A DNA stretch of 64,000 nt from Candidatus Woesebacteria bacterium RBG_13_46_13 (lineage in GTDB: Bacteria > Patescibacteriota > Microgenomatia > UBA8517), in contig MGFR01000001.1 of assembly GCA_001791995.1 (NCBI GenBank), positions 242,638 to 306,637 of the forward strand, written 5' to 3'. The notes under the pieces are model-generated. The model was not told the origin of the DNA. It made no database searches and saw only the letters and a program-made list of their open reading frames with translations. Position numbers and translations under genes: made by a program. Shown here piece by piece: positions 4,149 to 24,245 of this stretch; position 1 is the first letter of the stretch; every line of letters begins with the position of its first letter.

Positions 4149-5501
4149 TTATTTAATTCTTTTCAATTCTTTAACCAACACCTCTTTTTCGTTCGCCAAT
4201 TCTTTTTCGACAACTTTTTCAAAGAGGGCATTTAGTATTTCTCCAACCTTCGGTCCGGGGGCAAGATCAAGTGTCTTCATTACATCGTTTCCGTCTATTT
4301 TCAGATCCCGCACCGTAAAGGGTTGTTTTTGAACTTCGATTAGTCTTTTCTTGAATTCTTCCAACCTCCATGAGGTCTCCCTGGCGCCTCCGCCTAACCT
4401 GTCGGCAACTCTGAGGTAAAGCATGTCGGTAATGTTTTCCTTGCCCACGTTTTTGATAAAGCGTCTTATCGCCGAATCCGTCTGGCGCTCATCCACCGTA
4501 AACTGATGCCACCTGATAAGTGTTACGAATTTATCCGTTTCCTCATTGGAAAACCTCAATCTTTCGGCAATATTTCTGGCGATTTTGGTGGAGATTACCT
4601 CGTGGTTATAAAAGGTAATCACCCCGGTCGGAAGTTTTTTGTAGGTTGCGGGCTTGCCGATATCGTGGATTAGAGTGGCAAAGCGTACCAAAGGATCCGT
4701 TGACTTACAGGCCTTAAGGCTCATCAAAAGGTGGGTGCCCACATCGTAAAGATGGTGCCTGCCCGGAGATTTCTGCTCGACCCCGAAAGCCTTCTCCAGC
4801 TCCGGAAGGATCTCCTGCATCAGACCGGAATTTCTGAAGAGCAATATTCCCTCGTAAGGATTGGGTGAGGCCAGAAGTTTAAAAAGCTCTTCCTTGACCC
4901 GTTCCCTGGCGATTTTACCTATCAAAGCCGCATTCTTCTTTATCGCTTCAAGGGTTGCCTCCTCAATCGTAAAGCCCAACTCTGCGGCGATTCTTAAGGC
5001 TCGCATCATCCTTAAGGCATCTTCGGCAAATCTGACGTTGGCATCTCCCACGGCCCTGACCATCTTTTTGTCCAAATCTTTTTGTCCCCCGAAAAGGTCG
5101 ACTATTTCGTATTCGTGGTCTGCCTTAAGTTTCTCCAGGGCCATGGCGTTGATGGTGAAATCCCGTCTGGCCATGTCCTCTTTAAGCGTCTTGCCCCATT
5201 CGACCCTGTCTGGGCGGCGTGCGTCCGAGTAACCGAATTCTTTTCTGAAGGTGGTTATCTCATAGGGGTTGGTCGAGGAGGCGTCACTCACGCCTACGGT
5301 ACCGAACTCGTTGTCGTAAAATCCGTCGGGAAAAATCTTTAATATTTCCTCGGGGGTGGCACTGGTTGTGAAATCCCAGTCATCAACCGACCTGCCAGTC
5401 AATAAATCCCTGACTGCTCCTCCCACAACATATATTTCGTAGTTATTCTCCGAGAACTTTTTTAAAATTTCCTGTACGAATTCTGGGAGCTGAATTTTCA
5501 T
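4149..5501 (-). CDS. cca: CCA-adding tRNA nucleotidyltransferase with C-terminal HD domain
   Basis: 450 aa. N-terminal PolyA-pol head (GGAVRDLLTGR...DWDFTT) and HD motif (HDIGKP) in the C-terminal half. Confidence 0.85.
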   Translation of the reverse strand: MKIQLPEFVQEILKKFSENNYEIYVVGGAVRDLLTGRSVDDWDFTTSATPEEILKIFPDGFYDNEFGTVGVSDASSTNPYEITTFRKEFGYSDARRPDRVEWGKTLKEDMARRDFTINAMALEKLKADHEYEIVDLFGGQKDLDKKMVRAVGDANVRFAEDALRMMRALRIAAELGFTIEEATLEAIKKNAALIGKIARERVKEELFKLLASPNPYEGILLFRNSGLMQEILPELEKAFGVEQKSPGRHHLYDVGTHLLMSLKACKSTDPLVRFATLIHDIGKPATYKKLPTGVITFYNHEVISTKIARNIAERLRFSNEETDKFVTLIRWHQFTVDERQTDSAIRRFIKNVGKENITDMLYLRVADRLGGGARETSWRLEEFKKRLIEVQKQPFTVRDLKIDGNDVMKTLDLAPGPKVGEILNALFEKVVEKELANEKEVLVKELKRIK

Positions 5502-13471: not shown

Positions 13472-14440
13472 ATGGGAGGAAAACTGCCGACTCAAACATA
13501 CCAGGGGATTGCCCGTGATAAGGTTGATTTTGATTATCTCCGCAACCACCTGAAGGTCAAACACCTAGAGGCTAAAAACGCCTTCTCCAAAAAGTACCCG
13601 CATGTCGAGAAGTTCCTCAAAGAAAAAGGCCTAGACGTCGGCAAAATCAGAGAACACTCCGCAAAGATAATCGGAGCCGGAGCCTTAACGGGCACTCTTC
13701 TTCTGACCCCTCCGACGGGAACAAAATCCCTACCCCCTCCGCAGGAGGTGTTGGAGAAGGTCAGAGAAAAAGCCTCGGCCGCGGGTCTTCCGCAGAAGAT
13801 TTTGGTGGATAGCTTAGCCGCAGTGCTGCCGGAAAAAACCAGGCCTTTGGATAGAAGCGAGGAAAAATACTTGGAGAGGATATTTGAAGATATTTTGGGA
13901 ATAAAGGCAAAAGCCAATCTGGAAGGGGAACATTTAAATACAAGTTATGGATTGATAGGAGCAGAGCAGCATCTTAAAAGATATCCGGGAGATGTGATAG
14001 GGAACCACGCCCCATATCTAAAGGAAGGTATCGCCCCAGGGCTTGGGGCTTGGGGCTATTTTGCCCGCTCCAGGGCGGATATTTCTCCTTCTCTGGAAGA
14101 AACCGAAAAGTGGTATGCGGTTGTGCAGACCCTGTATCTGCCCGATTGGAGTAGCCGCCAGCCATATCTGCGGGATTGGTACAAATATCGCAAAGTTTTG
14201 ATTGTAAATACCGATAACGGCAATGCGGTTATTGCGGCCATCGCCGATTCCGGCCCGGCGGCCTGGACGGGGAAGCATTTCGGTGGCAGCCCGGAGGTGA
14301 TGGAATATTTGGGAGGTCCGCGTTACAAAAAAGGTCCGGTAGTTCTTTTCTTTGTCGATGACCCCCAGAATAAAGTTCCTTTGGGGCCGGTGGAATATAA
14401 TAAAGTAAACCTGCCGCAGTTGGCTTTGGTAGAAACCTAA
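13472..14440 (+). CDS. RlpA-like double-psi beta-barrel domain protein (septal-ring lytic transglycosylase-like), membrane-anchored
   Basis: 322 aa with TM near residue 65. The C-terminus VLIVNTDNGNAVIAAIADSGPAAWTGKHFGGSPEVMEYLG matches the RlpA DPBB signature (V.V.N..NG.SV.VRINDRGP). Confidence 0.6.
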   Translation: MGGKLPTQTYQGIARDKVDFDYLRNHLKVKHLEAKNAFSKKYPHVEKFLKEKGLDVGKIREHSAKIIGAGALTGTLLLTPPTGTKSLPPPQEVLEKVREKASAAGLPQKILVDSLAAVLPEKTRPLDRSEEKYLERIFEDILGIKAKANLEGEHLNTSYGLIGAEQHLKRYPGDVIGNHAPYLKEGIAPGLGAWGYFARSRADISPSLEETEKWYAVVQTLYLPDWSSRQPYLRDWYKYRKVLIVNTDNGNAVIAAIADSGPAAWTGKHFGGSPEVMEYLGGPRYKKGPVVLFFVDDPQNKVPLGPVEYNKVNLPQLALVET

Positions 14441-14442
14441 TA

Positions 14443-14772
14443 ATGAGCAAACTATTTTTCGATCAGCTTTTGGTTCTTGATGAGGTTGAGGGAGAAATCA
14501 AAAAAATCGCCAAAACCCGGGAAGAGAAAGAAGAGCTTTGGGGATTGGTTGATGAAATGGTTCACCACCGGGTTTTGGGCTGTGTTTTAGATAAGCTTCC
14601 CCGCGAAAACCACGAGGAGTTTTTGGAAAGGTTCCACGCCGCTCCCCAGGATGAATCCCTCTTGGACTACCTAAAGGAAAAAATCGGAGACAATATTGAT
14701 GAGCTGATAAGGCAGGAAATAGGAGATTTGGCTTTCGAACTTCTTGAGGATATCAGGGCCGAGAAGAAGTAA
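14443..14772 (+). CDS. hypothetical small acidic protein
   Basis: 109-aa ORF translationally coupled to the upstream gene. No recognisable domain. Confidence 0.4.
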   Translation: MSKLFFDQLLVLDEVEGEIKKIAKTREEKEELWGLVDEMVHHRVLGCVLDKLPRENHEEFLERFHAAPQDESLLDYLKEKIGDNIDELIRQEIGDLAFELLEDIRAEKK

Positions 14773-15307
14773 TTCTGACCACAATATCCCTCCGCGCCCT
14801 TCCTTTTTGGTCCGTGTCCAAGCCGTAGCCTTCGACCCAAAGATTAGGTATTTCAATACCGAGATAATCAACTGGGACTTTTACCTCTCTGGCATCGCTT
14901 TTGGAGAGCAGGGCGCAGGTTTTTAAAGACTTGGGCCCTCTGGCGTCTATCATGCGCAATAAGGTGTTGAGCGAATAGCCGGTATCCACGATATCCTCAA
15001 CCAGTATTACATTCTTGCCCCGAATGGGGGTTCTGACGTCAAGATTGATAATCGGTTCGCGGGAAGATTTGGTGCCGGAGCCATAACTGGAAAGACTTAT
15101 GTAGTCTATTTCCACATTCGGATTTCTTATTGCCCGTGCCAAATCAACCAGGAAGAAGGTTGCGCCTCTTAAAACCCCGACCAAAACCAGGGATTCTTCC
15201 CCTTCGTAGTCTGCGTCTATCTGTTGGGCCATCTCCGCAATGCGGGTGGATATCTGCTCGCTGGTTAATAAGGTTTCGTAGCGGACGTTTGAGGGTTTTT
15301 CTTTCAC
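14753..15307 (-). CDS. hpt: hypoxanthine-guanine phosphoribosyltransferase
   Basis: 184 aa. PRPP-binding motif VILVEDIVDTGYSL and overall HPRT fold pattern. Confidence 0.88.
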   Translation of the reverse strand: MKEKPSNVRYETLLTSEQISTRIAEMAQQIDADYEGEESLVLVGVLRGATFFLVDLARAIRNPNVEIDYISLSSYGSGTKSSREPIINLDVRTPIRGKNVILVEDIVDTGYSLNTLLRMIDARGPKSLKTCALLSKSDAREVKVPVDYLGIEIPNLWVEGYGLDTDQKGRARRDIVVRITSSRP

Positions 15308-15344
15308 AAAAGAAGATATATCACAGAGCTGTATAATTGAAAAG

Positions 15345-15650
15345 ATGGATAAAAATTATGGAGGAGTAATCTGGACTAACCACGCCCTGGATAAGATGCG
15401 CCAGAGGGGTATGTCCCAATCGGATGCTTGGGCGACTTGGAGGAATCCCCAGCAGTCAAGAAAGGCAAATACACCTGGGGCCTGGGTTTACTATCGTACT
15501 TACGCAAACGAGAAAGTTGAAGTCGTCGCCAAGAAAAACGAAAAAGGGCAGTGGCTCATCCTTTCGGTCTGGAGTAGGCCGGTTTCTGGGGAAAAGCCTA
15601 AGAGCGAATCTTTCCTGAAGTTTTTCTTCCGCAAGCTCTTCCGTGGTTAA
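15345..15650 (+). CDS. DUF4258-like small protein (putative toxin-like)
   Basis: 101 aa. The N-terminus WTNHALDKMRQRGMSQSDAWATWRNP resembles the DUF4258 pattern H...M.ERGIS..EV. Confidence 0.4.
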   Translation: MDKNYGGVIWTNHALDKMRQRGMSQSDAWATWRNPQQSRKANTPGAWVYYRTYANEKVEVVAKKNEKGQWLILSVWSRPVSGEKPKSESFLKFFFRKLFRG

Positions 15651-15784
15651 CCTTTTCGGTGCTTGAAAAACTCAACCTGTCTTAAGCGCTTGAGAGCTTC
15701 TGTCCGTGTTTTGTACGGCCCACCCAGATTTCTTCTGGTCTTTTCCGAAAGAACAAAATAGCCCGCCTTTTTCTTGACGATCAT
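15647..15784 (-). CDS. possible unannotated 45-aa basic ORF convergent with the DUF4258-like gene
   Basis: ATG at 15784 to TAA at 15647-15649, translating to MIVKKKAGYFVLSEKTRRNLGGPYKTRTEALKRLRQVEFFKHRKG. No clear SD. Its stop shares the GGTTAACC palindrome with the DUF4258-like gene stop. Confidence 0.2.
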   Translation of the reverse strand: MIVKKKAGYFVLSEKTRRNLGGPYKTRTEALKRLRQVEFFKHRKG

Positions 15785-15822
15785 GGTTTGATTTTAGCAA
15801 AAAAGGTGTAAGATATTTACTT

Positions 15823-16248
15823 ATGGCAAACAAGAAATACGTAACCCTTTTACTTTTAGCTTTCGGATTCTTCGTCTTCGGAGGGATTTTCTACTCAAAG
15901 TTTATAAAAGGGAATAATAGCCAAAATACGGTTAGCCCAACGCCTACCCAGCAAGTTCAGGGCGAAACAGCTAGCGTTAAAGAATTCACTGTAGACGGCA
16001 CCAACTTTGCCTTTAACCCCAGTGAGATCAGGGTCAAGAAGGGGGACACCGTCAGGATTATTTTCAAAGACGATGACGGTCAGCATAATCTGGTTATCGA
16101 CGGTTATAACGTTTCCACTGACCTTATCGGTCCGGGTAGCCAGGATACGATTGAATTTGTAGCCGATACGGTCGGGGAGTTTGAATACTACTGTTCGGTC
16201 GGAAGCCACAGGGAACTCGGAATGAGCGGAAAACTGGTAGTCGAATAG
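15823..16248 (+). CDS. cupredoxin (plastocyanin/azurin-like blue-copper) domain protein, membrane-anchored
   Basis: 141 aa with N-terminal TM. Type-1 copper ligand pattern H (HNLVIDG) ... YYCSVGSHRELGM (C-x3-H-x4-M). Confidence 0.65.
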   Translation: MANKKYVTLLLLAFGFFVFGGIFYSKFIKGNNSQNTVSPTPTQQVQGETASVKEFTVDGTNFAFNPSEIRVKKGDTVRIIFKDDDGQHNLVIDGYNVSTDLIGPGSQDTIEFVADTVGEFEYYCSVGSHRELGMSGKLVVE

Positions 16249-16254
16249 ACGAAG

Positions 16255-16476
16255 CTAAAGATTCAAAAGTCCGAGGACTCGGTAGATCAGAATAGCCGGC
16301 CAAACCAAAGCCTTCAGGATGCCCAAAAGCCCCTCCGAAAAGGTAGTTGCCTGTTGCAGAAAATAGACCAAGGCGCCGATTAAGCCCAGACCATAGACTG
16401 CCCCCGAGCTTGAGTTACATTTCATTTCTTTCCACTTTTTAATCATATGATTATTCCCCAACGACTGTGGTTCCAC
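16255..16476 (-). CDS. hypothetical small membrane protein
   Basis: 73-aa ORF with two predicted TM helices (GLGLIGALVYFL, LVWPAILIYRVLGLL). Confidence 0.3.
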   Translation of the reverse strand: MEPQSLGNNHMIKKWKEMKCNSSSGAVYGLGLIGALVYFLQQATTFSEGLLGILKALVWPAILIYRVLGLLNL

Positions 16477-17212
16477 CTCCTTCTCCTCCAGAGGATGTAC
16501 CTGGAGCCGTACCAGGATTACCGCCTTCTATGGTTGTTCCGCCGCCCGAGTCACCCCCACCTTCAATTACTGTATTCTGAATGTCAGACCCACCACTTCC
16601 GCCGGCAGAGGTTCCGGGCGCAAACTGCATGGTGCCACCCTCGATAACCACTCCCGCTTCTCCTCCCGGTCCGGTTCCCGGTGCCCAGACATGCTCCACT
16701 TTCTGGAAGAATTCGGTTTGCCCCTCGGTTCCGTTAACCTCAACAATTCTTTCTGCCACCTGATTTACAACCTGTTCCTGAACTTCGATGACGTTTCCTT
16801 TCTCACCCTCGTCAATCTCATTCTTTATTTCCTCCATGGTCTTTTGTTGTTCTATCGTTCTTTCCGCAACCGACTCCAAAGTCTCCCCGTCATCGGTTTT
16901 CCCCAATAAGTTATTTTGTTTTTCTTTAATCTCAAGGTAATTCTGCAAAAGATCTTTCATCTTCTCGTTATTTCCCTCTTGAGCATAACCCTGGGCCAGA
17001 GACAGTCTTTTTTCGGCATGTTTTTCCAAGACCCCCACTTTTCTCTCCAGGCTGAAGGCGAAGAAATATTCAATTCCTTCCTGGATCTTCACTACAATCG
17101 AGTTCTCTGAAGTTAACGCCTGTTGTAAATCAATTGCTTTTGAAGATTTTGGGAGAAAAAGACCGAAGAAGAAGAAAACCAAAACCAGGAGCAATATTCT
17201 CTTAATACCCAT
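16451..17212 (-). CDS. secreted coiled-coil protein with Gly/Ser/Thr-rich C-terminal repeats
   Basis: 253 aa. Signal peptide, long heptad-like region, C-terminal GG(x)GG repeats (GGSGGSD...GGGDSGGGTTIEGG). Confidence 0.5.
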   Translation of the reverse strand: MGIKRILLLVLVFFFFGLFLPKSSKAIDLQQALTSENSIVVKIQEGIEYFFAFSLERKVGVLEKHAEKRLSLAQGYAQEGNNEKMKDLLQNYLEIKEKQNNLLGKTDDGETLESVAERTIEQQKTMEEIKNEIDEGEKGNVIEVQEQVVNQVAERIVEVNGTEGQTEFFQKVEHVWAPGTGPGGEAGVVIEGGTMQFAPGTSAGGSGGSDIQNTVIEGGGDSGGGTTIEGGNPGTAPGTSSGGEGGGTTVVGE

Positions 17213-17344
17213 CTAAGGTAATGATATATCAGCGATACTCAACAAATCAATAAATTACAATTGAGTTATACTTTCGGAGTGCCCGTTTGGCTGAGTATAC
17301 CTGCCCAAAAACATATTTTGTCGTAAAAGTAGTATAAATAAAGT

Positions 17345-17821
17345 ATGGGCATTAACTCCAAAATTGCCAAAGTCCCTTTTTTTGTTCTTTACCTGATACT
17401 TATAACCTTTACCTCATTTAATTGGGTTAGAGTTATCCTGTCCCAAAGTAGCTTTGAATCTTTTCGATCTCTACAACCATGGGATTATTATTTATCCAAT
17501 TTCTTTGCAACTAATTTCGGAATTTCCCAAAAACAATATTTCATTTTTGCTTTCCCCATAATCCTTCTGGGTCTGTATTTTATTCCCAAACTTGTCGGTA
17601 AATTAATGGGTCTGGACAAAAAAACCAACGTCAAAGGAGATAATCATGTTGCCATACTGCTGATTCTTCTTGTCGCACCTTCTACTTTGGGTTTACATAA
17701 ACTTTTTGCGGCAAACTGGAAAAGCTACCTCATGCCAGGAATCATTCTGATAGCTATATTTTCCATCTGGTCATGGTTAGATGAAAAAAAATACAAGACC
17801 AGAGAGAAAAATACCCTATAA
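17345..17821 (+). CDS. hypothetical polytopic membrane protein
   Basis: 158 aa with about four TM helices. AT-rich composition; first gene of the AT-rich block. Confidence 0.5.
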   Translation: MGINSKIAKVPFFVLYLILITFTSFNWVRVILSQSSFESFRSLQPWDYYLSNFFATNFGISQKQYFIFAFPIILLGLYFIPKLVGKLMGLDKKTNVKGDNHVAILLILLVAPSTLGLHKLFAANWKSYLMPGIILIAIFSIWSWLDEKKYKTREKNTL

Positions 17822-17827
17822 ATTGCT

Positions 17828-18502
17828 GTGGCAAATATAGACAATAAAGCAACAAAAGAAATTGGATTAAAGACGGTCTTTACCTTTATCCTAAACGGTT
17901 TATTTTCAGCCTTTTTTGTCACCTCCGGAGTCATAAATTTTAAGGAAAAGAAAATTATTGTCGGTCTTCTATATTTTGTATTGGCTGCTCTTGCCCTTTT
18001 ACCCCACAGATTTTTGAAGGTTACCCAGGCTTTAAAAATAGTTATTCTTATTATTCTTTTTGTCATACTGGCGGGAGTAGCTGCACAAGGTAATCCCATC
18101 GCGGAGCAGAAGTATGAATACTATAAAGTAGGGCAGGAATTTAACTTAAAATTCGGAGACAACACCTTCGCAACGACGGTCCGTAATGTTTCACAGGAAA
18201 CCAAGATAATAGCTCAAGGAAAAGAAGCAACCACATCTGGTCTTTTTCTTGTAGTTAAGGTGGATATTGTTAATCTTGGATCGGAATCGCTTGATTTTAT
18301 TACAGGAAAGGATCCTGAGTTAAAAGACAACCAGAAAAGAGTCTATGCTCTTTACGGGGCAGATATTCCCCAGGGAAAACTACAACCCAGCGTTGCCAAG
18401 AGAGTGTCGTATGTTTTTGAAATTCCCAAAGATTCAAAAGGATTAAGTTTTATTTTCAAAGACAAAACCGATATTGCCAAATCCGTAGATTTGGGGAGGT
18501 AA
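17828..18502 (+). CDS. membrane protein with C-terminal DUF4352-like beta-sandwich domain
   Basis: 224 aa. Three N-terminal TM helices, C-terminal LFLVVKVDIVNLGSESLDF...YVFEIPKD consistent with DUF4352. Confidence 0.45.
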   Translation: MANIDNKATKEIGLKTVFTFILNGLFSAFFVTSGVINFKEKKIIVGLLYFVLAALALLPHRFLKVTQALKIVILIILFVILAGVAAQGNPIAEQKYEYYKVGQEFNLKFGDNTFATTVRNVSQETKIIAQGKEATTSGLFLVVKVDIVNLGSESLDFITGKDPELKDNQKRVYALYGADIPQGKLQPSVAKRVSYVFEIPKDSKGLSFIFKDKTDIAKSVDLGR

Positions 18503-18513
18503 TTTTAGATCAA

Positions 18514-18801
18514 TCATTTCCCCCTTGGAGCCTTCTGATTGGAAAGGGTAGACTTGGAATTAACCAAGGCCTCCTTTTTTGCTTTAGTCCAACTTTTTAG
18601 TTGAATTTCCCTAGTCACAGCTTCTTTCCTAGTTTGGTACTTCTCGGAATAAACGAGGGCAAAAGATGAAAAATAGCGAAGATATTTAGCTGATTTTAAC
18701 GAACTTTTCCGGTGTTCTTTAAGCCTCTTTTCCAGATTGTTTGTTTGGCCGACATAAAGGGTATTTGAGGATGTGCGGAGGATATATATAAAGAAAGGCA
18801 T
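18514..18801 (-). CDS. GIY-YIG nuclease-superfamily small protein (UPF0213/YhbQ-like)
   Basis: 95 aa. FFIYILRTSSNTLYVGQTNNLEKRLKEH is the GIY-YIG signature. Confidence 0.8.
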   Translation of the reverse strand: MPFFIYILRTSSNTLYVGQTNNLEKRLKEHRKSSLKSAKYLRYFSSFALVYSEKYQTRKEAVTREIQLKSWTKAKKEALVNSKSTLSNQKAPRGK

Positions 18802-18869
18802 TGGCTGAGCATACGGGTCTGGACCCTTATAGACCCATTAGTACTGTATCATTCTATTGACGTTTCTTG

Positions 18870-20006
18870 CTATAACGTGAGTGGCTCGTAAATATTTTGG
18901 TCGCTTACTGGAGAAATATATTTCGGGGTGGCGGGAGCAGCTCTCTTTGCGATTTCACCCACAATTACCCTGATTAGTTTTTTTGCCATCCGTTCATTTT
19001 TCTTTAACGATAAGTTCCAATCAATTCCTGGCCTTATATTTCCTTCCATAAGGAACACATTGCCACTGTTGCTTACTACCAAATCTAAAGCATAAAGTTC
19101 ACTATCCACGTCGAGGTCTTGAGCGATGCGTTCGGCAAAGACGCGTACCTTTAGCGGCACTTCTTTTAAGGTTATATAGTGAAGTTCACCACCTTGATGT
19201 TCATTACAGCGGAAATCTCCCTTTTTTGCTCTCCTGATATAGACCTGGACAACTCTTTGCCCTACATAGATCATGCGAATATCTATAAACCCCGCGCTTT
19301 TGTTGTAAGCATAGCCGGTATTAAATTGAGCGAATGGCTGAAGTATAAATGAAATATTTTTATTTTTACGCATGATATTTAAAATATCTTTTTGGGGATT
19401 TAATGAGTCCACCAAATAAACATTGTTTCCTCCGGAACCGTATCTGTCCTTGAGAACAAATCTGTTTGAAAAGTCAGAGGCATGAGGATGAGCCGCGGTA
19501 AGTACCCTGATTTTATTTAGCGCAGCATGAACGCCAACAGAGCTTTTATTTGTAACAGCTACTGTTGGAATAGCAAAATCTTCAAGTACACGATATGTCT
19601 TTTGTTTGTCATAAAAAAGTGAGAAGAATGCCGGGCTATTAAATGGTCTTACTTTTGGATCGGAAAAAAGAATATTTATCCGTTGTTTTTGTTTTGAATT
19701 AACCGGAGATAATTTTTCAAAAATAAACTGTGAGTAACACGGCTGGTTTACTTTGATCCATTTGTTGTTTTTATATAACCAGTAACAACTTGCTGTTCCG
19801 CCTCCGATTATATCTTTAGAAGTGACAAAAGCGGATTTTAAATTATTTTTCTCACACGTTTTAAGGAAGTATGAGTAGGACTCATTATAATTAGTCCTAC
19901 CTTTACTTAGTTGGAAAGGTGACAGTACATTGTTATTCGATGAAGCGCTTGCGGCAATTGCGTTGGTGTAAACGACAAGAACATCAAAGGTTTTTATTTT
20001 AGTCAT
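18870..20006 (-). CDS. ATP-grasp family ligase (RimK/GshB-like), function unknown
   Basis: 378 aa. ATP-grasp-like motifs (RYGSGGNNVYLV, CNEHQGGELHYITL, EGNIRPGIDW). Strongly AT-rich compared with flanking housekeeping genes. Confidence 0.55.
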   Translation of the reverse strand: MTKIKTFDVLVVYTNAIAASASSNNNVLSPFQLSKGRTNYNESYSYFLKTCEKNNLKSAFVTSKDIIGGGTASCYWLYKNNKWIKVNQPCYSQFIFEKLSPVNSKQKQRINILFSDPKVRPFNSPAFFSLFYDKQKTYRVLEDFAIPTVAVTNKSSVGVHAALNKIRVLTAAHPHASDFSNRFVLKDRYGSGGNNVYLVDSLNPQKDILNIMRKNKNISFILQPFAQFNTGYAYNKSAGFIDIRMIYVGQRVVQVYIRRAKKGDFRCNEHQGGELHYITLKEVPLKVRVFAERIAQDLDVDSELYALDLVVSNSGNVFLMEGNIRPGIDWNLSLKKNERMAKKLIRVIVGEIAKRAAPATPKYISPVSDQNIYEPLTL

Positions 20007-20150
20007 AAGAATGTGCGAAGTAATTAATTTAATTCTCGTGAAGGCAAGCAGAATTAAATATTATAAGCAACTTACCGAGTATACACGAATTTACCTATAA
20101 TTGCTTGTAGAGCTAGCTTAGCTGAGCGGGTCGGTCTAGAACCTTATATT

Positions 20151-21371
20151 CTATTTTTCCCCAACCGGCTTTTCACCCTTTTTAATGGATACCAACGCTT
20201 TTTGAAGTTTCATTCCCGCTTCCCAAGACAATTCATCACCCTCGTACTCGCACCTATATAAACCCTGCAGATTCGAGGGAATCTTAACCCGTTTATCCCA
20301 AACCAAAATTACTCTCTCGTCATAAAGAACAAACGCTGTACCGATTTCTATTAGGACGTTTTGATTAATTTCAAATGAAGTTTTGGTCTCTTCTTCCGGA
20401 CTTTTATCTGCAGAGACGCTTATGACAGCAGCCTGACACTCTCTCATCTGATCGAGAATTTTTTTGGGGACTGGTATAGCTGTCGTTTCCTCCTCTTCGG
20501 CAACTACTGGTTCAAAGCCTCCTAATTCAAGTGAGGTTTTAATCTGATCAAGAATTTTCGAGTTTTTTCCATGAGAGATAAACACTTTGAGGGTTTGACT
20601 TGCCGCAGGGGGTTCGGATACGATGGGTGTTGTCGATTCTTCTTGTTCTTGAGGCTCTTGTTCCAAAAGTGTTTCCGGGGCGGTTGTTGGTTGTTGAGTG
20701 CCAACCGCATCGGTTTTTGAAAGTTGCACAAACAAATTGCCCGTTATATTCGCTAAGATTCCTACAAAATTTCCATTTTCTTTAAGAATACCGAGAGCTT
20801 CTTTGGCCCTTTCAGACGGTACCCCCATACCGACAAGAACATTAATGGCTATATCTTCTCTGGGAAATTTATTACGATCATACTTCTCATAAAAACTCTT
20901 GAGTATTCTGGGATTTAAAGCTGCTTTTATTAGGGCCTGTTTGTCTTGGTTCTCTTCGGTGGGCATAATTATTTTACGACCCAGATCTGTTAATCCAACC
21001 TCTTTGGCGTTATATCCCCCCGTCGTCAAACCATAGGCAACGGAAGCCCCGGTTAGATATCGCCAGTCTGAGCTTGTGGGAGACCTATTTATCGCGCCAG
21101 CTATGTCTAAAGGGGTTGCCGACTTAGCGGCAAAATTATCAACAAGAGCTTTGGCTATAACTAAAGACTCCTTCAACGTCACACGAGGAAAATCGGTTTG
21201 AGACAGAATTGAAAATTTTTTAGTTCCTGTTTCTCCTGTCATTGCACGAACATTATAAACACAAGTATTTCGGCCTGTCAAGTGTTTGTTCTGCCCAATA
21301 TCTGATTGTCTTTTAAACTTAACGTGCCCGGATAATTGGCGTGTCGTACGAATATTCCATGAATAAATCAT
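20151..21371 (-). CDS. two-domain protein: unknown N-terminal domain + C-terminal TIR-like nucleotide-binding domain (COG4271/DUF1863 type)
   Basis: The C-terminal 140 aa (KVFISHGKNSKILDQIKTSLELGGFEPVV...AAVISVSAD...NQNVLIEIGTAF...ERVILVWDKRVKIPSNLQGLY) align closely with the COG4271 consensus KVFIVHGHD..LGLEPIIL..AVVLLTPDD..RQNVIFELGYF..ERVCALYKGGVELPSDYSGVLY. The longest ORF reaches 21458 and would overlap tRNA-Gln, so the start is placed at the internal Met at 21371. The true start is uncertain (Met at 21242 also possible). Confidence 0.6.
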   Translation of the reverse strand: MIYSWNIRTTRQLSGHVKFKRQSDIGQNKHLTGRNTCVYNVRAMTGETGTKKFSILSQTDFPRVTLKESLVIAKALVDNFAAKSATPLDIAGAINRSPTSSDWRYLTGASVAYGLTTGGYNAKEVGLTDLGRKIIMPTEENQDKQALIKAALNPRILKSFYEKYDRNKFPREDIAINVLVGMGVPSERAKEALGILKENGNFVGILANITGNLFVQLSKTDAVGTQQPTTAPETLLEQEPQEQEESTTPIVSEPPAASQTLKVFISHGKNSKILDQIKTSLELGGFEPVVAEEEETTAIPVPKKILDQMRECQAAVISVSADKSPEEETKTSFEINQNVLIEIGTAFVLYDERVILVWDKRVKIPSNLQGLYRCEYEGDELSWEAGMKLQKALVSIKKGEKPVGEK

Positions 21372-21428
21372 CGGTTTTGAAGGTGTTTTAGGGCTATTCG
21401 AGGCGTCTCGGTCACTGGGGTGCCCTGT

Positions 21429-21503
21429 TTGGCTGCGGGATAGGGATTCGAACCCCAATACCAGCCTCCAGAGGGCTGTGTCCTACCGTTAGACGATCCC
21501 GCA
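21429..21503 (-). tRNA. tRNA-Gln (anticodon CUG)
   Basis: Reverse complement folds as a 75-nt cloverleaf: acceptor TGCGGGA/TCCCGCA with the U1-A72 pair typical of bacterial tRNA-Gln, anticodon stem CAGCC/GGCTG, loop CTCTGGA, T-loop TTCGAAT, encoded CCA. Confidence 0.85.
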
Positions 21504-21542
21504 ATGTGGCATAATTATAGCAAATAAGGGTAAAATATTCGT

Positions 21543-21893
21543 ATGCTAAAGTCTTTCTATCTTTTGGTAGTTGCCCACTTTGTCGCGGACTTTATTCTTC
21601 AGGGACACTTCCTGTCGGTTAAGAAAAGGGGATTGAATAAGTATATGCTGGCCCACACGGCCATTATGGCTTTGGCTTTCTTCCTGCCCCTCATCAATTA
21701 TCCTTCCGGAAAGGTGGTTCTGGGAACGGCTATTATTCTTGTCGTTCATGCCCTGATTGATGCGGTGAGGGGGGAATCAACACGGATTTTTAAAGTTGTC
21801 CCCGGAACCTATCTTTATGCGTTTTCCTTGGGCCTGGACCAGATTGCCCATATAACTACGCTCTATTTCGTCTTCACCAGGTTGATAATCTAA
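21543..21893 (+). CDS. DUF3307-like small membrane protein
   Basis: 116 aa, three TM helices. The N-terminus LLVVAHFVADFILQ is typical of DUF3307. Confidence 0.45.
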   Translation: MLKSFYLLVVAHFVADFILQGHFLSVKKRGLNKYMLAHTAIMALAFFLPLINYPSGKVVLGTAIILVVHALIDAVRGESTRIFKVVPGTYLYAFSLGLDQIAHITTLYFVFTRLII

Positions 21894-21969
21894 GCCCCAT
21901 AGTATATAATCCAGCCTCGTTCGTTGACAACTTCGAAAGCAGCTGGAGAAGCCAAAAAGGGAGGCTACG

Positions 21970-22260
21970 ATGCAAAAGCCAGGGGAATTCGTACATGCAG
22001 GAATGGAAAGAGCTCGAAGGAAGATCTCGCCTGCGGTAATCGTTCTTTCTCTCGTGCTCTTCGTCGGTTTGCTGGTGGGCATAAAGATGCTCTTCGGCGA
22101 GCCAACCTCGGCAGAAGCATTTGCCGCGGCATTCGTTTGTCCGGAAGCACCGGCACCCTTCGTTCTTCAGCAGAACTTGGTCGCCGATGTTGACGGGCAG
22201 CGGCTCTACATCGCCTGCGCCTGGGTAGGAGGTCTTCCTCAAGAAGCCCCTTTACCGTAA
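21970..22260 (+). CDS. small TM protein, possibly the frameshifted N-terminal part of the downstream 3D-domain gene
   Basis: 96 aa with one TM (AVIVLSLVLFVGLLVGI). GC-rich. Ends 36 nt before the 3D-domain ORF, in a different frame. Confidence 0.3.
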   Translation: MQKPGEFVHAGMERARRKISPAVIVLSLVLFVGLLVGIKMLFGEPTSAEAFAAAFVCPEAPAPFVLQQNLVADVDGQRLYIACAWVGGLPQEAPLP

Positions 22261-22295
22261 GCGCGGGGGTTGCCGAGCCTGTTTCTGCCGCCGGC

Positions 22296-22622
22296 TTGGT
22301 AGCCACTGGAGAAACCGTCCTTGTGAGGACATCGCACTACTGGCCGCCCTTGGGTGGGCCAAACTGCGCTCGCTTTGAAAACGGCGAGTGCGTCAGCAGG
22401 ATGTCCAGCGGGGAAGCCTGGCAGGATTGGACCGAACGGGCAATCGCTTGCCCTACCGAATGGGAATTCGGCACACGGCTTGAGGTTGCCGGGCGTGAGT
22501 GGGTCTGCATGGACCGCGGCGGAGCCATCGTAATTGAAGATGGAATCGCCTGGGTCGACATGCTCACTCCAGTTGGACTGTTTCCGCACGGAACGGTTCT
22601 TGAAGCAACGCTTGTTCGTTGA
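22296..22622 (+). CDS. 3D (Asp-Asp-Asp) domain protein, YuiC/MltA-C-terminal-like cell-wall binding/lytic domain
   Basis: 108 aa with TTG start. SHYWPPLGGPNCARFENGE...VAGREWVCMDRGGAIVIEDGIAWVDM matches the 3D-domain signature. GC-rich patch. Confidence 0.55.
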   Translation: MVATGETVLVRTSHYWPPLGGPNCARFENGECVSRMSSGEAWQDWTERAIACPTEWEFGTRLEVAGREWVCMDRGGAIVIEDGIAWVDMLTPVGLFPHGTVLEATLVR

Positions 22623-22640
22623 ATAGCTTTCGAAGTTGAT

Positions 22641-22686
22641 TGCCGGGGGCAAAATCTATCTCGTGAGAGATGATCAGCCCCCGGCA
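22641..22686 (+). terminator. 10-bp perfect-stem hairpin after the 3D-domain gene
   Basis: tgccgggggc ...26-nt loop... gcccccggca. No strong T-tract follows. Confidence 0.35.
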
Positions 22687-23069
22687 TTCGCTTTCGCATT
22701 AAACATCCGCCTGGTTCTTGTCCAGCCTACGTCCCTTCGGGAATCTTGATCAGAGACCAGCCCTTCCTTGTGAGATCGAGCCTACCGTCCCTTTTCTGCC
22801 GAATAATACCGGCTCTCCTTGGCAACTTGGTTGCCTTACTGTTGAGGAAAGCGTGACGCGTCATCCTCTTCTGAACCCCCTCCGCAAGTTCTACCAGCAG
22901 GAGCAAAGAACAACGCGAGCAACCCAACCTCTTCAGGAACTTTTCGAGCTTGGTGAAGTCGTAGGCAGACACTGTTCCCTCCGCAGAGAATGGTGTTCGG
23001 ACTTACCCAGGCTAGTCGGCGGACATTTAATGTGCGACAGTAGCAAAATTCTACGCTTTAGCCTCAAAA

Positions 23070-23100
23070 TTGTCAACCGATTAGAGAATGTGGGTATAAT
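23070..23100 (+). promoter_or_regulatory. sigma70-like promoter (TTGTCA ... TATAAT) just upstream of the GSDH-like gene
   Basis: -35-like ttgtca at 23070-23075 and tataat at 23095-23100 with a 19-nt spacer. The ORF's TTG start is only 9 nt downstream, so the real start may be internal or the mRNA leaderless. Confidence 0.35.
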
Positions 23101-23108
23101 AAAAAACG

Positions 23109-24245
23109 TTGAAAAAATTATTACCCTTGCTAATAATTGCAGTTTTAATTGGAGCTTTATTTCTACTTGGCCAAAAATACCTCCGTTCCAATGTCAATAT
23201 CGATATTCTGACCCAGATAGCTCAACCCGGGAAAAATAGCGAAAAATCCCTGCCCTCAAGCTCCCAGCTTGCGGGTTTGGAGATCTTTGCAGATCTTAAG
23301 GGGGCTTTGCCCCGGGCTCTGGCCTTTGACAAAAACGGAGTTCTTTTCGCCTCCGTCCCCGCCCAGGGCAAAATTATTGCCCTGCCCGATGCAAACAGAG
23401 ACGGCAAGGCGGATAGGATTGTTGAAGTAATAACCGGTTTGTCTCGGCCGCACGGTATCGCCTTTGACGGGAATTTTATATATATCGGGGAAACCGACAA
23501 GGTAGTGCGGGCCAGCTACAATGCCGATAACTTCACTATTGGGTCTTTGCAAACTCTTTTTTCTTTGCCGGATGGAGGCAGACACTTTACCCGAACGATA
23601 AGAGTCCTGAAAGATAAACTTTATACTTCCGTGGGCTCCTCCTGCGATACCTGTGTCGAAAAGGATGAGTATCGTGCTGCTATTTTGGTTTCTAATCTCG
23701 ACGGGAGCGGGTTGAGGGTTTTTGCCAGAGGTTTAAGAAATAGCGTATTTTTTACCTTCGATTCTCAAGGAAAACTCTGGGGAGCGGATATGGGTAGGGA
23801 TTTCTTGGGAGATAACCTACCCCCGGATGAGATAAATATTATTGAGGACGGCAAAGACTACGGTTGGCCTTATTGTTATGGGGATAGGCTTAGGGATAGC
23901 AATTTTATGCCCGGTCAAAAGACTGACTACTGCTTAAGTACGCAAAGCCCTCTTTATCAGCTGCCTGCGCACGTTGCTCCTTTAGGCGTGGTTTTCGATA
24001 AAGACGGAAATTTATTGGTGGCGCTACACGGCTCATGGAATTCGACTGTTCCCGTTGGTTATAAAATTGTTAAACTTAATCTAACCAAAGGAAAGGTCGT
24101 CCAGGTAGACGATTTTGTAACGGGGTTTATTACGCCCGCAGGTAAAGTTGTGGGACGACCGGTGGATTTGATTTTCAATAAAGAAGGAGAGCTTTTTGTC
24201 TCCGACGATTACGCTGGAGTTATTTATTTATTGCGCACAAAATGA
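23109..24245 (+). CDS. PQQ-dependent soluble sugar dehydrogenase / sorbosone dehydrogenase (YliI-like) beta-propeller protein, secreted
   Basis: 378 aa with signal/TM. Repeated beta-propeller blades (PRALAFDKNGVLF, PHGIAFDGNFIYIG, GRPVDLIFNKEGELFVSDD) typical of the GSDH family. Confidence 0.6.
   Translation: MKKLLPLLIIAVLIGALFLLGQKYLRSNVNIDILTQIAQPGKNSEKSLPSSSQLAGLEIFADLKGALPRALAFDKNGVLFASVPAQGKIIALPDANRDGKADRIVEVITGLSRPHGIAFDGNFIYIGETDKVVRASYNADNFTIGSLQTLFSLPDGGRHFTRTIRVLKDKLYTSVGSSCDTCVEKDEYRAAILVSNLDGSGLRVFARGLRNSVFFTFDSQGKLWGADMGRDFLGDNLPPDEINIIEDGKDYGWPYCYGDRLRDSNFMPGQKTDYCLSTQSPLYQLPAHVAPLGVVFDKDGNLLVALHGSWNSTVPVGYKIVKLNLTKGKVVQVDDFVTGFITPAGKVVGRPVDLIFNKEGELFVSDDYAGVIYLLRTK

Follow-up and report, generated by a model that had tools for sequence, protein, structure and literature searches.

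A conserved tandem winged-helix domain fused to a CAP12-class TIR domain: a candidate single-chain sensor-effector encoded beside a tRNA gene of Candidatus Woesebacteria

What is the function of a protein that joins a TIR domain to a conserved domain without a Pfam family, and why does its gene begin so close to a tRNA gene? We addressed these questions for a gene on the reverse strand of a 64,000-nucleotide stretch of Candidatus Woesebacteria bacterium RBG_13_46_13 (contig MGFR01000001.1, positions 242,638 to 306,637; hereafter "the window"). Its 363-aa product is OGM10317.1 at NCBI, where it is described as a "hypothetical protein" of that organism; residue numbers below refer to it, and the coordinates of all features are collected in Table 1. 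We consider it probable, although well short of certain, that the protein is a single-chain sensor-effector in which a trigger drives oligomerisation of the TIR domain, depletion of nicotinamide adenine dinucleotide (NAD+) and abortive infection.

The C-terminal 140 residues had been assigned from the letters alone to the "TIR-like" family COG4271, and this assignment is borne out. The family is now PF10137 (CAP12-PCTIR_TIR); the match (E 1.2e-19; 70.9 bits against a cut-off of 24.7 bits) covers profile positions 1-118 of 119 and corresponds to residues 291-406 of the 435-aa maximal open reading frame (ORF). Homologues are annotated in the same way. A full-length AlphaFold2 (AF2) model, with a mean predicted local distance difference test score (pLDDT) of 84, gave the TIR-STING structures 9lmq, 7un8 and 9lmr as its best Foldseek matches in the PDB (E 3e-5 to 6e-4), with SPARTA, SARM1 and plant TIRs and generic flavodoxin-like proteins ranked among and below them. 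A profile of the C-terminal region aligned to PycTIR (8jsj, E 1.4e-4) and to SfSTING (7un8, "CD-NTase-associated protein 12"), the latter at an E of 0.036 that is below significance on its own. The fold is that of TIR domains, which is flavodoxin-like, and it is nearest to the solved members of PF10137 rather than to a plain receiver or flavodoxin.

Is this domain an enzyme? The original prediction held that it lacks the context of the classic catalytic glutamate and might therefore be a sensor, a claim that the alignments contradict. Once an offset of 8 between the chain numbering of 7un8 and that of Morehouse et al. 2022 (PMC9402430) is allowed for, E299, which is invariant in 46 homologues, coincides with E84 of SfSTING; it also aligns with the glutamate of PycTIR, in the motif NVHLEFG. 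F221, N295 and N324 fill the positions of F6, N80 and D110 in the SfSTING pocket, the last with an invariant asparagine in place of the aspartate. In SfSTING, F6 stacks on nicotinamide, N80 contacts the ribose and phosphate, and E84 is catalytic, while D110 is supplied by a neighbouring TIR domain and completes the NAD+ pocket (PMC9402430). TIR domains of the CAP12/Pycsar class are described as effector NADases activated by oligomerisation (10.64898/2026.04.30.722052). Since the catalytic glutamate and the pocket residues are conserved, the domain appears to be a functional member of this clade of effector enzymes, with a predicted NADase activity, and not a sensor that has lost its glutamate. 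The conserved block "QNV..E.G" quoted in the original prediction itself includes the catalytic residue.

The region in front of the TIR domain had been described as a domain of about 270 aa and of no known type. It is shorter, at 216 aa, of which about 160 (residues 15-175) are folded and about 40 form a disordered linker. The statement that the domain has no recognisable signature stood up to sequence searches: it gave only sub-threshold matches in Pfam (DUF7226 and AAA_assoc_C) and none in NCBIfam, and its profile found nothing in the PDB even at an E of 10. A cyclic-nucleotide sensor (STING, SAVED or cyclic nucleotide monophosphate (cNMP)-binding) was not matched in the N-terminal region in Pfam, NCBIfam or the PDB. 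Its type could nonetheless be assigned from the predicted structure, as a tandem winged helix. AF2 predicts the domain with a pLDDT of 90-98, and with a predicted template-modelling score (pTM) of 0.86 when modelled alone, as two units, WH1 and WH2, that are connected by two helices. WH1 (residues ~20-85) consists of helix 23-37, a bridge residue at 42, helices 44-50 and 58-69, a two-residue strand at 73-74 and strand 82-84. WH2 (residues ~110-175) consists of helix 112-120, short strands at 122 and 124-125, helices 129-138 and 143-160, and strands 163-166 and 169-172. The winged-helix topology alpha1-beta1-alpha2-alpha3-beta2-beta3 is thus present twice, with the short strands taken from the DSSP string. 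Foldseek returned no match to the domain at E<=1e-3 in the PDB or BFVD (best TM-score 0.51, to 3bhw), and its weak matches are all winged-helix proteins: the tandem winged helices of SelB, DtxR, MarR, and the recognition domains of FokI and BpuJI. The most conserved stretch, SPTSSxWRxLTGASxAYGLTxGGYN, forms helix 3 and the wing of WH1. The domain is basic (isoelectric point (pI) ~9) in 19 of 27 members, and the linker that follows it is 31-60 aa long across the family.

Further evidence for the role of the N-terminal domain comes from the other proteins in which it occurs. A profile of this domain alone, searched against 1.84 billion representative proteins, gave matches to 4304 clusters (50% identity), and for 362 of these the E-value was 1e-30 or lower. 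TIR fusions, truncated ones included, account for about half of the top 148 matches. In four proteins (P0128, P0192, P0196 and P0229) the domain is instead fused to a Ser/Thr kinase (PF00069), with E-values of 1e-32 to 1e-35 in the three complete proteins and 2e-19 in P0229, which is truncated; the two kinases that were scanned against PADLOC, those of P0128 and P0192, match its PD-T4-6 model at E 1e-51 to 1e-54. A third arrangement is common in Actinobacteria. There, in a large set of short proteins of 255-290 aa (~270), the domain and a linker are followed at the C-terminus by a conserved peptide of 35 aa (VSVxPGvHINIEIHIAADASxETIEEIFRNMRRYVL). The gene immediately downstream in Micromonospora, Curtobacterium and Plantactinospora is that of a "predicted pPIWI-associating nuclease" (PF18165, above the gathering score), which also has a weak match to the PADLOC model Aga_Nuclease (E 1e-7 to 1e-9); the two genes overlap in two of these three cases. 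Among metagenomic loci with enough downstream sequence, some of them near-duplicates, the nuclease follows 24 of 25 short-protein genes and none of 49 TIR-fusion genes. The domain and the PF18165 nuclease apparently form an undescribed two-gene operon (L098:8001-9417, L099:8001-9396, L100:8001-9384 and L101-L127), in which the nuclease gene usually overlaps the stop codon of the gene before it. The pair in Curtobacterium adjoins a Hachiman system (HamA and helicase), a PIN_12 gene and a GIY_YIG_2 gene. A search of the openly accessible literature found no description of the winged-helix/TIR architecture or of the two-gene nuclease version.

The use of one N-terminal domain with TIR, kinase or nuclease outputs that exclude one another argues for a modular conflict system in which this domain is the sensor or adaptor and not the effector. 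The original prediction had left both roles open for it; the input role is now favoured and the effector role is not, given the pairing of the domain with TIR, kinase and, in trans, nuclease. Two further kinds of N-domain protein were seen. In P0144, P0210 and P0241 the C-terminal TIR-like region lacks the glutamate ("..FLLMLGAS.." replaces NVLIEIG), and these may be inactive derivatives or regulators. Separately, a 328-aa N-domain protein (L129:974-1960), in which no TIR was detected and which has no nuclease neighbour, may represent a fourth architecture.

How might such a protein work? We propose that the tandem winged helix (residues 15-175) would act as the input, the linker as a flexible tether of 31-60 residues, and the TIR domain (residues 217-354) as the output. 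Isolated TIR protomers would be inactive at rest, as the NAD+ pocket would need a residue from a neighbouring TIR domain (N324, at the D110 position). If an infection cue, either nucleic acid or another invariant feature, were bound by the conserved surface that helix 3 and the wing form in WH1, TIR domains would be drawn to one another. Once assembled, they would cleave NAD+ by means of E299, and the cell, depleted of NAD+, would cease to grow before replication of the invader. We infer each part of this scheme, namely the activity, the activation by oligomerisation, the trigger and the role against phages or mobile elements, from sequence comparison and predicted structure. That nucleic acid is the trigger is a tentative suggestion to which we give rather less than an even chance; such a trigger would account for a sensor that is highly conserved and basic, and for the resemblance to the TIR and nuclease effectors of short Argonautes. 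More broadly, the ~160-aa domain could be an unrecognised and widespread invader-sensing module, possibly a guide-independent sensor of nucleic acid, that defines a defence family with interchangeable outputs, a proposal for and against which we find the case nearly balanced, leaning slightly against. The outputs would be a fused CAP12-type TIR NADase, a fused kinase of PD-T4-6 type, and a pPIWI-type nuclease recruited in trans through the 35-aa peptide.

Does the distribution of the gene fit a role in defence? A search of 5.8 billion proteins with the full-length sequence gave 2069 matches, and the 120 best, which were listed, have a query coverage of 93-100% and are mostly ~350-390 aa long. 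The family is large (>2000 clusters), and relatives occur in at least 519 of 185,579 species-representative genomes, from many bacterial phyla and from Pacearchaeota and Methanomassiliicoccales, with 41-52% identity among the best 80 species matches listed. Occurrence is sporadic, at ~0.3% of species. We surveyed five genes either side of the gene at ~85 independent loci, with ORFs called by a simple longest-ORF heuristic, and found no conserved partner: no ORF cluster occurs in more than six of these loci, and those that recur do so at varying offsets. The 129 immediately adjacent genes fall into 76 Pfam families, none of which is seen more than twice. A CD-NTase or pyrimidine cyclase neighbour was not found in the window, among the 129 adjacent genes or in the contexts of ten loci that were annotated with Pfam. 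Toxin-antitoxin, restriction-modification, Schlafen, integrase or insertion sequence (IS) genes are some of the neighbours of the family. Small accessory islets are among the ten annotated contexts: that at L001/L003 carries a Type ISP restriction enzyme and a serine recombinase, and that at L005 carries Bro-N, SNase and NADAR genes; L007 has a recombinase near a tmRNA gene, L094 an IS1595 element, L095 Schlafen and PIN/DUF433 genes, and L096 PIN-DUF4411 and ImmA/IrrE genes. The NADAR gene beside the L005 homologue was considered as a partner and rejected, as it occurs once in 129 neighbours.

Several observations weigh against an abortive-infection sensor-effector of this kind. By raw count, roughly six to eight of the 129 adjacent genes are defence-like at a PADLOC E<=1e-10 (dGTPase, PDC-S09, PDC-S04, AbiLii/RloB, SoFic and Schlafen-type genes), and several loci (e.g. 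L009 and L093) have housekeeping-only surroundings. Searches with tblastn found no match in 72,556 PLSDB plasmids or 50,697 INPHARED phage records, and only three of 2.9 million viral contigs in IMG/VR, one of them Nitrobacter, gave a match. The N-terminal domain is about as well conserved as the TIR domain (pairwise identity 0.50 and 0.55, respectively), which is atypical for a sensor that races variable phage proteins, yet fits an invariant ligand. The case for nucleic-acid binding is drawn from the winged-helix fold, the charge and an analogy with short Argonautes, and eight of the 27 N-terminal domains are acidic or near neutral. Lastly, the arrangement of the two domains relative to each other was predicted without confidence, with a pTM of 0.49 for the full-length model.

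Some of these observations would suit a protein wired the other way round, that is, a one-component regulator with a housekeeping or stress role, in which the winged helices are a DNA-binding output and the TIR-like domain is a nucleotide-binding or oligomerising input. A winged-helix fold with a mostly basic pI suggests DNA binding, both domains are strongly conserved across phyla, many loci have housekeeping surroundings, and source annotations read "predicted nucleotide-binding protein"; C-terminal domains are also swapped within transcription-factor families. We nonetheless regard a regulator as quite unlikely, because the invariant glutamate and pocket residues argue for an enzyme over a passive binder, and because the other partners of the N-terminal domain, a nuclease and a PD-T4-6-like kinase, are effectors and not ligand sensors. 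The sporadic occurrence of the gene (~0.3% of species) and the lack of a conserved target gene nearby also speak against it, as do a constitutive-looking consensus promoter and a scan for direct repeats over positions 14000-22000 that reported no repeat family there. In another alternative, the TIR domain, like ThsB of Thoeris, would make a messenger of the cyclic ADP-ribose type for an effector encoded elsewhere in the genome. TIR domains with the same catalytic glutamate can be cyclases, and many configurations of Thoeris exist (10.64898/2025.12.03.692087). However, no neighbour of any kind is conserved in ~85 loci, the TIR domain belongs to the CAP12/Pycsar effector clade PF10137 and not to ThsB's PF08937, and the gene seems to spread as a single cassette, all of which makes a signal producer most unlikely.

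A further possibility is that the substrate is not NAD+ but a nucleotide or nucleic acid. The TIR-like domain could then be an N-glycosidase of the MilB or BcmB kind, a nucleoside 2-deoxyribosyltransferase or a 2',3'-cNMP synthetase, targeted to DNA or RNA by the winged helices. The CMP N-glycosidase BcmB and a nucleoside 2'-deoxyribosyltransferase are among the weaker Foldseek matches (ranks 25 and 33), and a winged-helix module could tether an enzyme to nucleic acid. The placement in PF10137, the NADase TIRs that make up the best structural matches, and the conservation of residues aligned with the nicotinamide and ribose pocket of SfSTING point to NAD+ as the substrate, and we therefore judge a different substrate very unlikely. 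In the remaining alternative the chemistry is the same and the target differs: an anti-plasmid function, competition between mobile elements or a toxin-like addiction module would use NAD+ depletion in response to foreign nucleic acid, as SPARTA and SPARDA do. The pairing of the N-terminal domain with a TIR domain or a pPIWI-associated nuclease parallels those two systems, and the adjacency to tRNA genes and the islets with recombinases or IS elements are consistent with such a role, but the gene is absent from the sequenced plasmids that were searched. We consider this unlikely on balance, although computationally nothing sets it apart from our main proposal.

How does a single-chain TIR sensor-effector compare with systems already described? 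TIR-STING (SfSTING/Cap12) and PycTIR have a TIR domain of the same subfamily by hidden Markov model (HMM) and by fold, they too carry sensor and TIR in one chain, and their expected activation is alike, with ligand-driven oligomerisation followed by NAD+ hydrolysis. The difference lies in the sensor, which is a STING, SAVED or cNMP-binding domain in those proteins and an N-terminal tandem winged helix here. The proposed mode of action resembles that of TIR-SAVED as well. Because a cyclic-nucleotide sensor, a cyclase and a partner gene are all missing, the protein is neither a component of CBASS, Pycsar or Thoeris nor an effector that depends on a second messenger; membership in Thoeris was rejected on two grounds, the lack of a conserved ThsA or other effector neighbour and a TIR domain of PF10137, not PF08937. 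Experiments in E. coli have established defence by single-protein TIR systems (PMC11350192), and SpbK of B. subtilis is described as an NADase that causes abortive infection and senses the YonE protein of phage SP-beta (PMC12847820). Such defences likewise consist of one gene that encodes a TIR domain and a non-TIR region and senses directly, without a signalling partner. Their non-TIR regions have no detectable sequence similarity to the N-terminal domain described here, and our profile only touches the "KIFISHSS" strand of SpbK (E 0.79).

The closest PADLOC models are those of PDC-S35, five HMMs that match the TIR region, one of which extends over WH2 and the linker. For the window protein the E-values are 5e-13 to 3e-10, and among 46 family members they reach 1e-16 at best. 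Membership in PDC-S35 was judged by score and coverage and rejected; because the matches are weak and partial, mostly confined to the TIR domain, we regard the family as a relative of PDC-S35 and not as a member. A literature search found no publication text on PDC-S35. The likeness to PD-T4-6 is limited to the four sister proteins with a kinase, as the window protein has a TIR domain in the kinase position. Short-Argonaute systems use TIR (SPARTA) or nuclease (SPARDA) effectors, which deplete NAD+ or act as nucleases upon oligomerisation. Their sensor is likewise combined with a TIR domain or a nuclease (here PF18165), which is an analogy and not homology. TIR chains of SPARTA appear among the fold matches of the window protein. 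In contrast to SPARTA and SPARDA, the N-domain systems have no Argonaute, APAZ or guide, and their sensor is a 160-aa tandem winged helix.

Where does the gene begin? The longest reading frame was expected to overrun the tRNA gene, with an internal methionine as the true start, and both expectations proved correct. ARAGORN and Rfam place a tRNA-Gln gene directly upstream, and the TTG start of the maximal ORF (21458) lies inside it, with an overlap of 29 nt. The ATG at 21242, one of the two methionines that had been put forward, is the start of the coding sequence (CDS), because the homologues, 46 of which were aligned, start at it or a few residues away, and because relatives carry in-frame stops upstream (21 codons upstream in L005 and 10 codons upstream in L001). 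Starts at 21371, 21281 and 21458 are ruled out by these stops and by the position of the promoter. Public gene calls disagree on the length of the protein (363, 376 and 406 aa), and sequence comparison supports only the 363-aa start.

Table 1. Features of the TIR gene and its surroundings, by position in the window
Feature	Position	Strand	Basis or remark
Maximal ORF, 435 aa, TTG start	20151..21458	-	ORF list of the window
True CDS, 363 aa	20151..21242	-	Includes the TAG stop at 20151-20153; from homologue starts and upstream stops in relatives
N-terminal domain, residues 15-175, two winged-helix units	20718..21200	-	AF2
Linker, disordered, E/P/S/T-rich, residues 176-216	20595..20717	-	pLDDT <50 over residues 177-214
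TIR domain, CAP12/Pycsar class, residues 217-354, predicted NADase effector	20181..20594	-	PF10137, Foldseek
E299, NVLIEIG motif, codon GAA	20346..20348	-	Invariant in 46 homologues; SfSTING E84
F221			Nearly invariant in the family; SfSTING F6 position
N295			Invariant in the family; SfSTING N80 position
N324, PSNLQGLY motif			Invariant in the family; SfSTING D110 position
Sigma-70-type promoter	21252..21281	-	TTGACA 21281-21276, 18-nt spacer, TATAAT 21257-21252
Intergenic region, 187 nt, tRNA-Gln 3' end to ATG	21243..21429	-	Non-coding though within the maximal ORF
tRNA-Gln (anticodon CTG)	21430..21503	-	ARAGORN; Rfam, 56.8 bits; directly upstream, same strand
Low-GC block	17000..21429		GC 0.35-0.41 against a window mean of ~0.475; abuts the tRNA 3' end
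RimK-like ATP-grasp gene	18870-20006	-	PF08443, E 8e-13; 144-nt gap downstream of the TIR gene
Small stand-alone GIY-YIG gene	18514-18801	-	Downstream of the TIR gene

The promoter lies inside the longer reading frames and matches the TTGACA-N18-TATAAT consensus at all 12 positions, the sole 12/12 match in the region. Both hexamers and their spacing to the ATG are kept in the window, in L005/L006 and in L001-4, whose proteins are 84-85% and 74% identical to the window protein, respectively, while most of the other intergenic sequence has diverged. Since the ATG follows the end of the -10 box by only 9 nt, and since no Shine-Dalgarno sequence is visible in those 9 nt, the transcript probably has no leader or almost none, to judge by the spacing. 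With a strong promoter of its own, the gene may move between genomes as a cassette of promoter and ORF that often lands beside tRNA genes.

Is the DNA next to the tRNA gene foreign, as the original prediction suggested? Part of that suggestion holds. The region from 17 to 21 kb is the lowest-GC block of the window, and the gene thus combines a location at a tRNA 3' end with atypical composition, as expected of an island. Family members are also found near tRNA genes elsewhere: at 88 independent loci, there are 0.72 tRNA genes per 10 kb within 500 bp (6 tRNAs in 83 kb), compared with 0.11-0.13 at a distance of 2-8 kb, an enrichment of ~6-fold. In L001-4, the gene is placed after tRNA-Ser(GCT). 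In L005, a tRNA-Gln(CTG) gene lies upstream, but three genes intervene, one of them NADAR (L005:3025-5369), and directly before the TIR gene stands "gcccagcca" (~5190-5198), the remnant of the 3' acceptor end of a tRNA, which was seen in L005 only and is followed by intergenic DNA homologous to that of the window. The remnant and the intervening genes are most simply read as the trace of an insertion that came later at this tRNA, and the arrangement suggests serial insertions at one tRNA hotspot. The other two intervening ORFs of L005 are paralogous, with a 300-nt repeat at 70% identity.

A recent, integrase-mediated insertion is not supported. The tRNA 3' end is not repeated elsewhere in the window, even with up to three mismatches allowed, nor is there a convincing attachment (att) repeat, and no integrase was found among eight flanking window ORFs scanned against Pfam. 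The gene is therefore in an old or decayed islet and not in a demonstrably recent insertion, and the low-GC block as a whole is possibly an old genomic islet. Besides the TIR gene, the block contains the genes for the RimK-like ATP-grasp and small GIY-YIG proteins, a DUF4352 gene and a membrane-protein gene; no terminator was predicted between the TIR gene and the ATP-grasp gene. The ATP-grasp and GIY-YIG genes were considered as conserved partners and rejected, and the other genes of the block are not such partners either; the ATP-grasp gene is not kept beside TIR homologues elsewhere. A GIY-YIG gene also lies near the TIR gene in L001-4, upstream of it (L001:6860-7114), and its product is 37% identical to that of the window over 71 aa. 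On the other side, just beyond the tRNA-Gln and DUF3307 genes, positions 21900-22700 are GC-rich (0.60 against ~0.475) and hold several overlapping ORFs in different frames, one of which (22296-22622, forward strand) has no Pfam or PDB match. An Rfam search of positions 21500-23150 found nothing in this stretch even at an E of 0.1, and it may be another foreign or fast-evolving segment.

What would a sensor-effector of this kind add to our understanding of bacterial immunity? The output end is ordinary, since single-chain TIR sensor-effectors are already known there. The novelty is the input domain, which has a confidently predicted fold and is highly conserved, and which lacks a Pfam family, a solved or viral structural relative, and a PADLOC model of its own. 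Because the same domain is wired to three effectors of a defence type, it offers a testable entry to a candidate defence family and its trigger. The annotation is corrected as well, to a 363-aa start accompanied by a conserved promoter whose position points to a leaderless transcript. If our proposal is correct, the two outputs, TIR and nuclease, would parallel the effectors of short Argonautes. The hosts include Candidatus Woesebacteria, of the Patescibacteria (candidate phyla radiation, CPR), and a metagenome-assembled genome of Pacearchaeota; the family would thus add a candidate of the abortive-infection type in these lineages, and the sensor would reach genome-reduced CPR bacteria and DPANN-type archaea.

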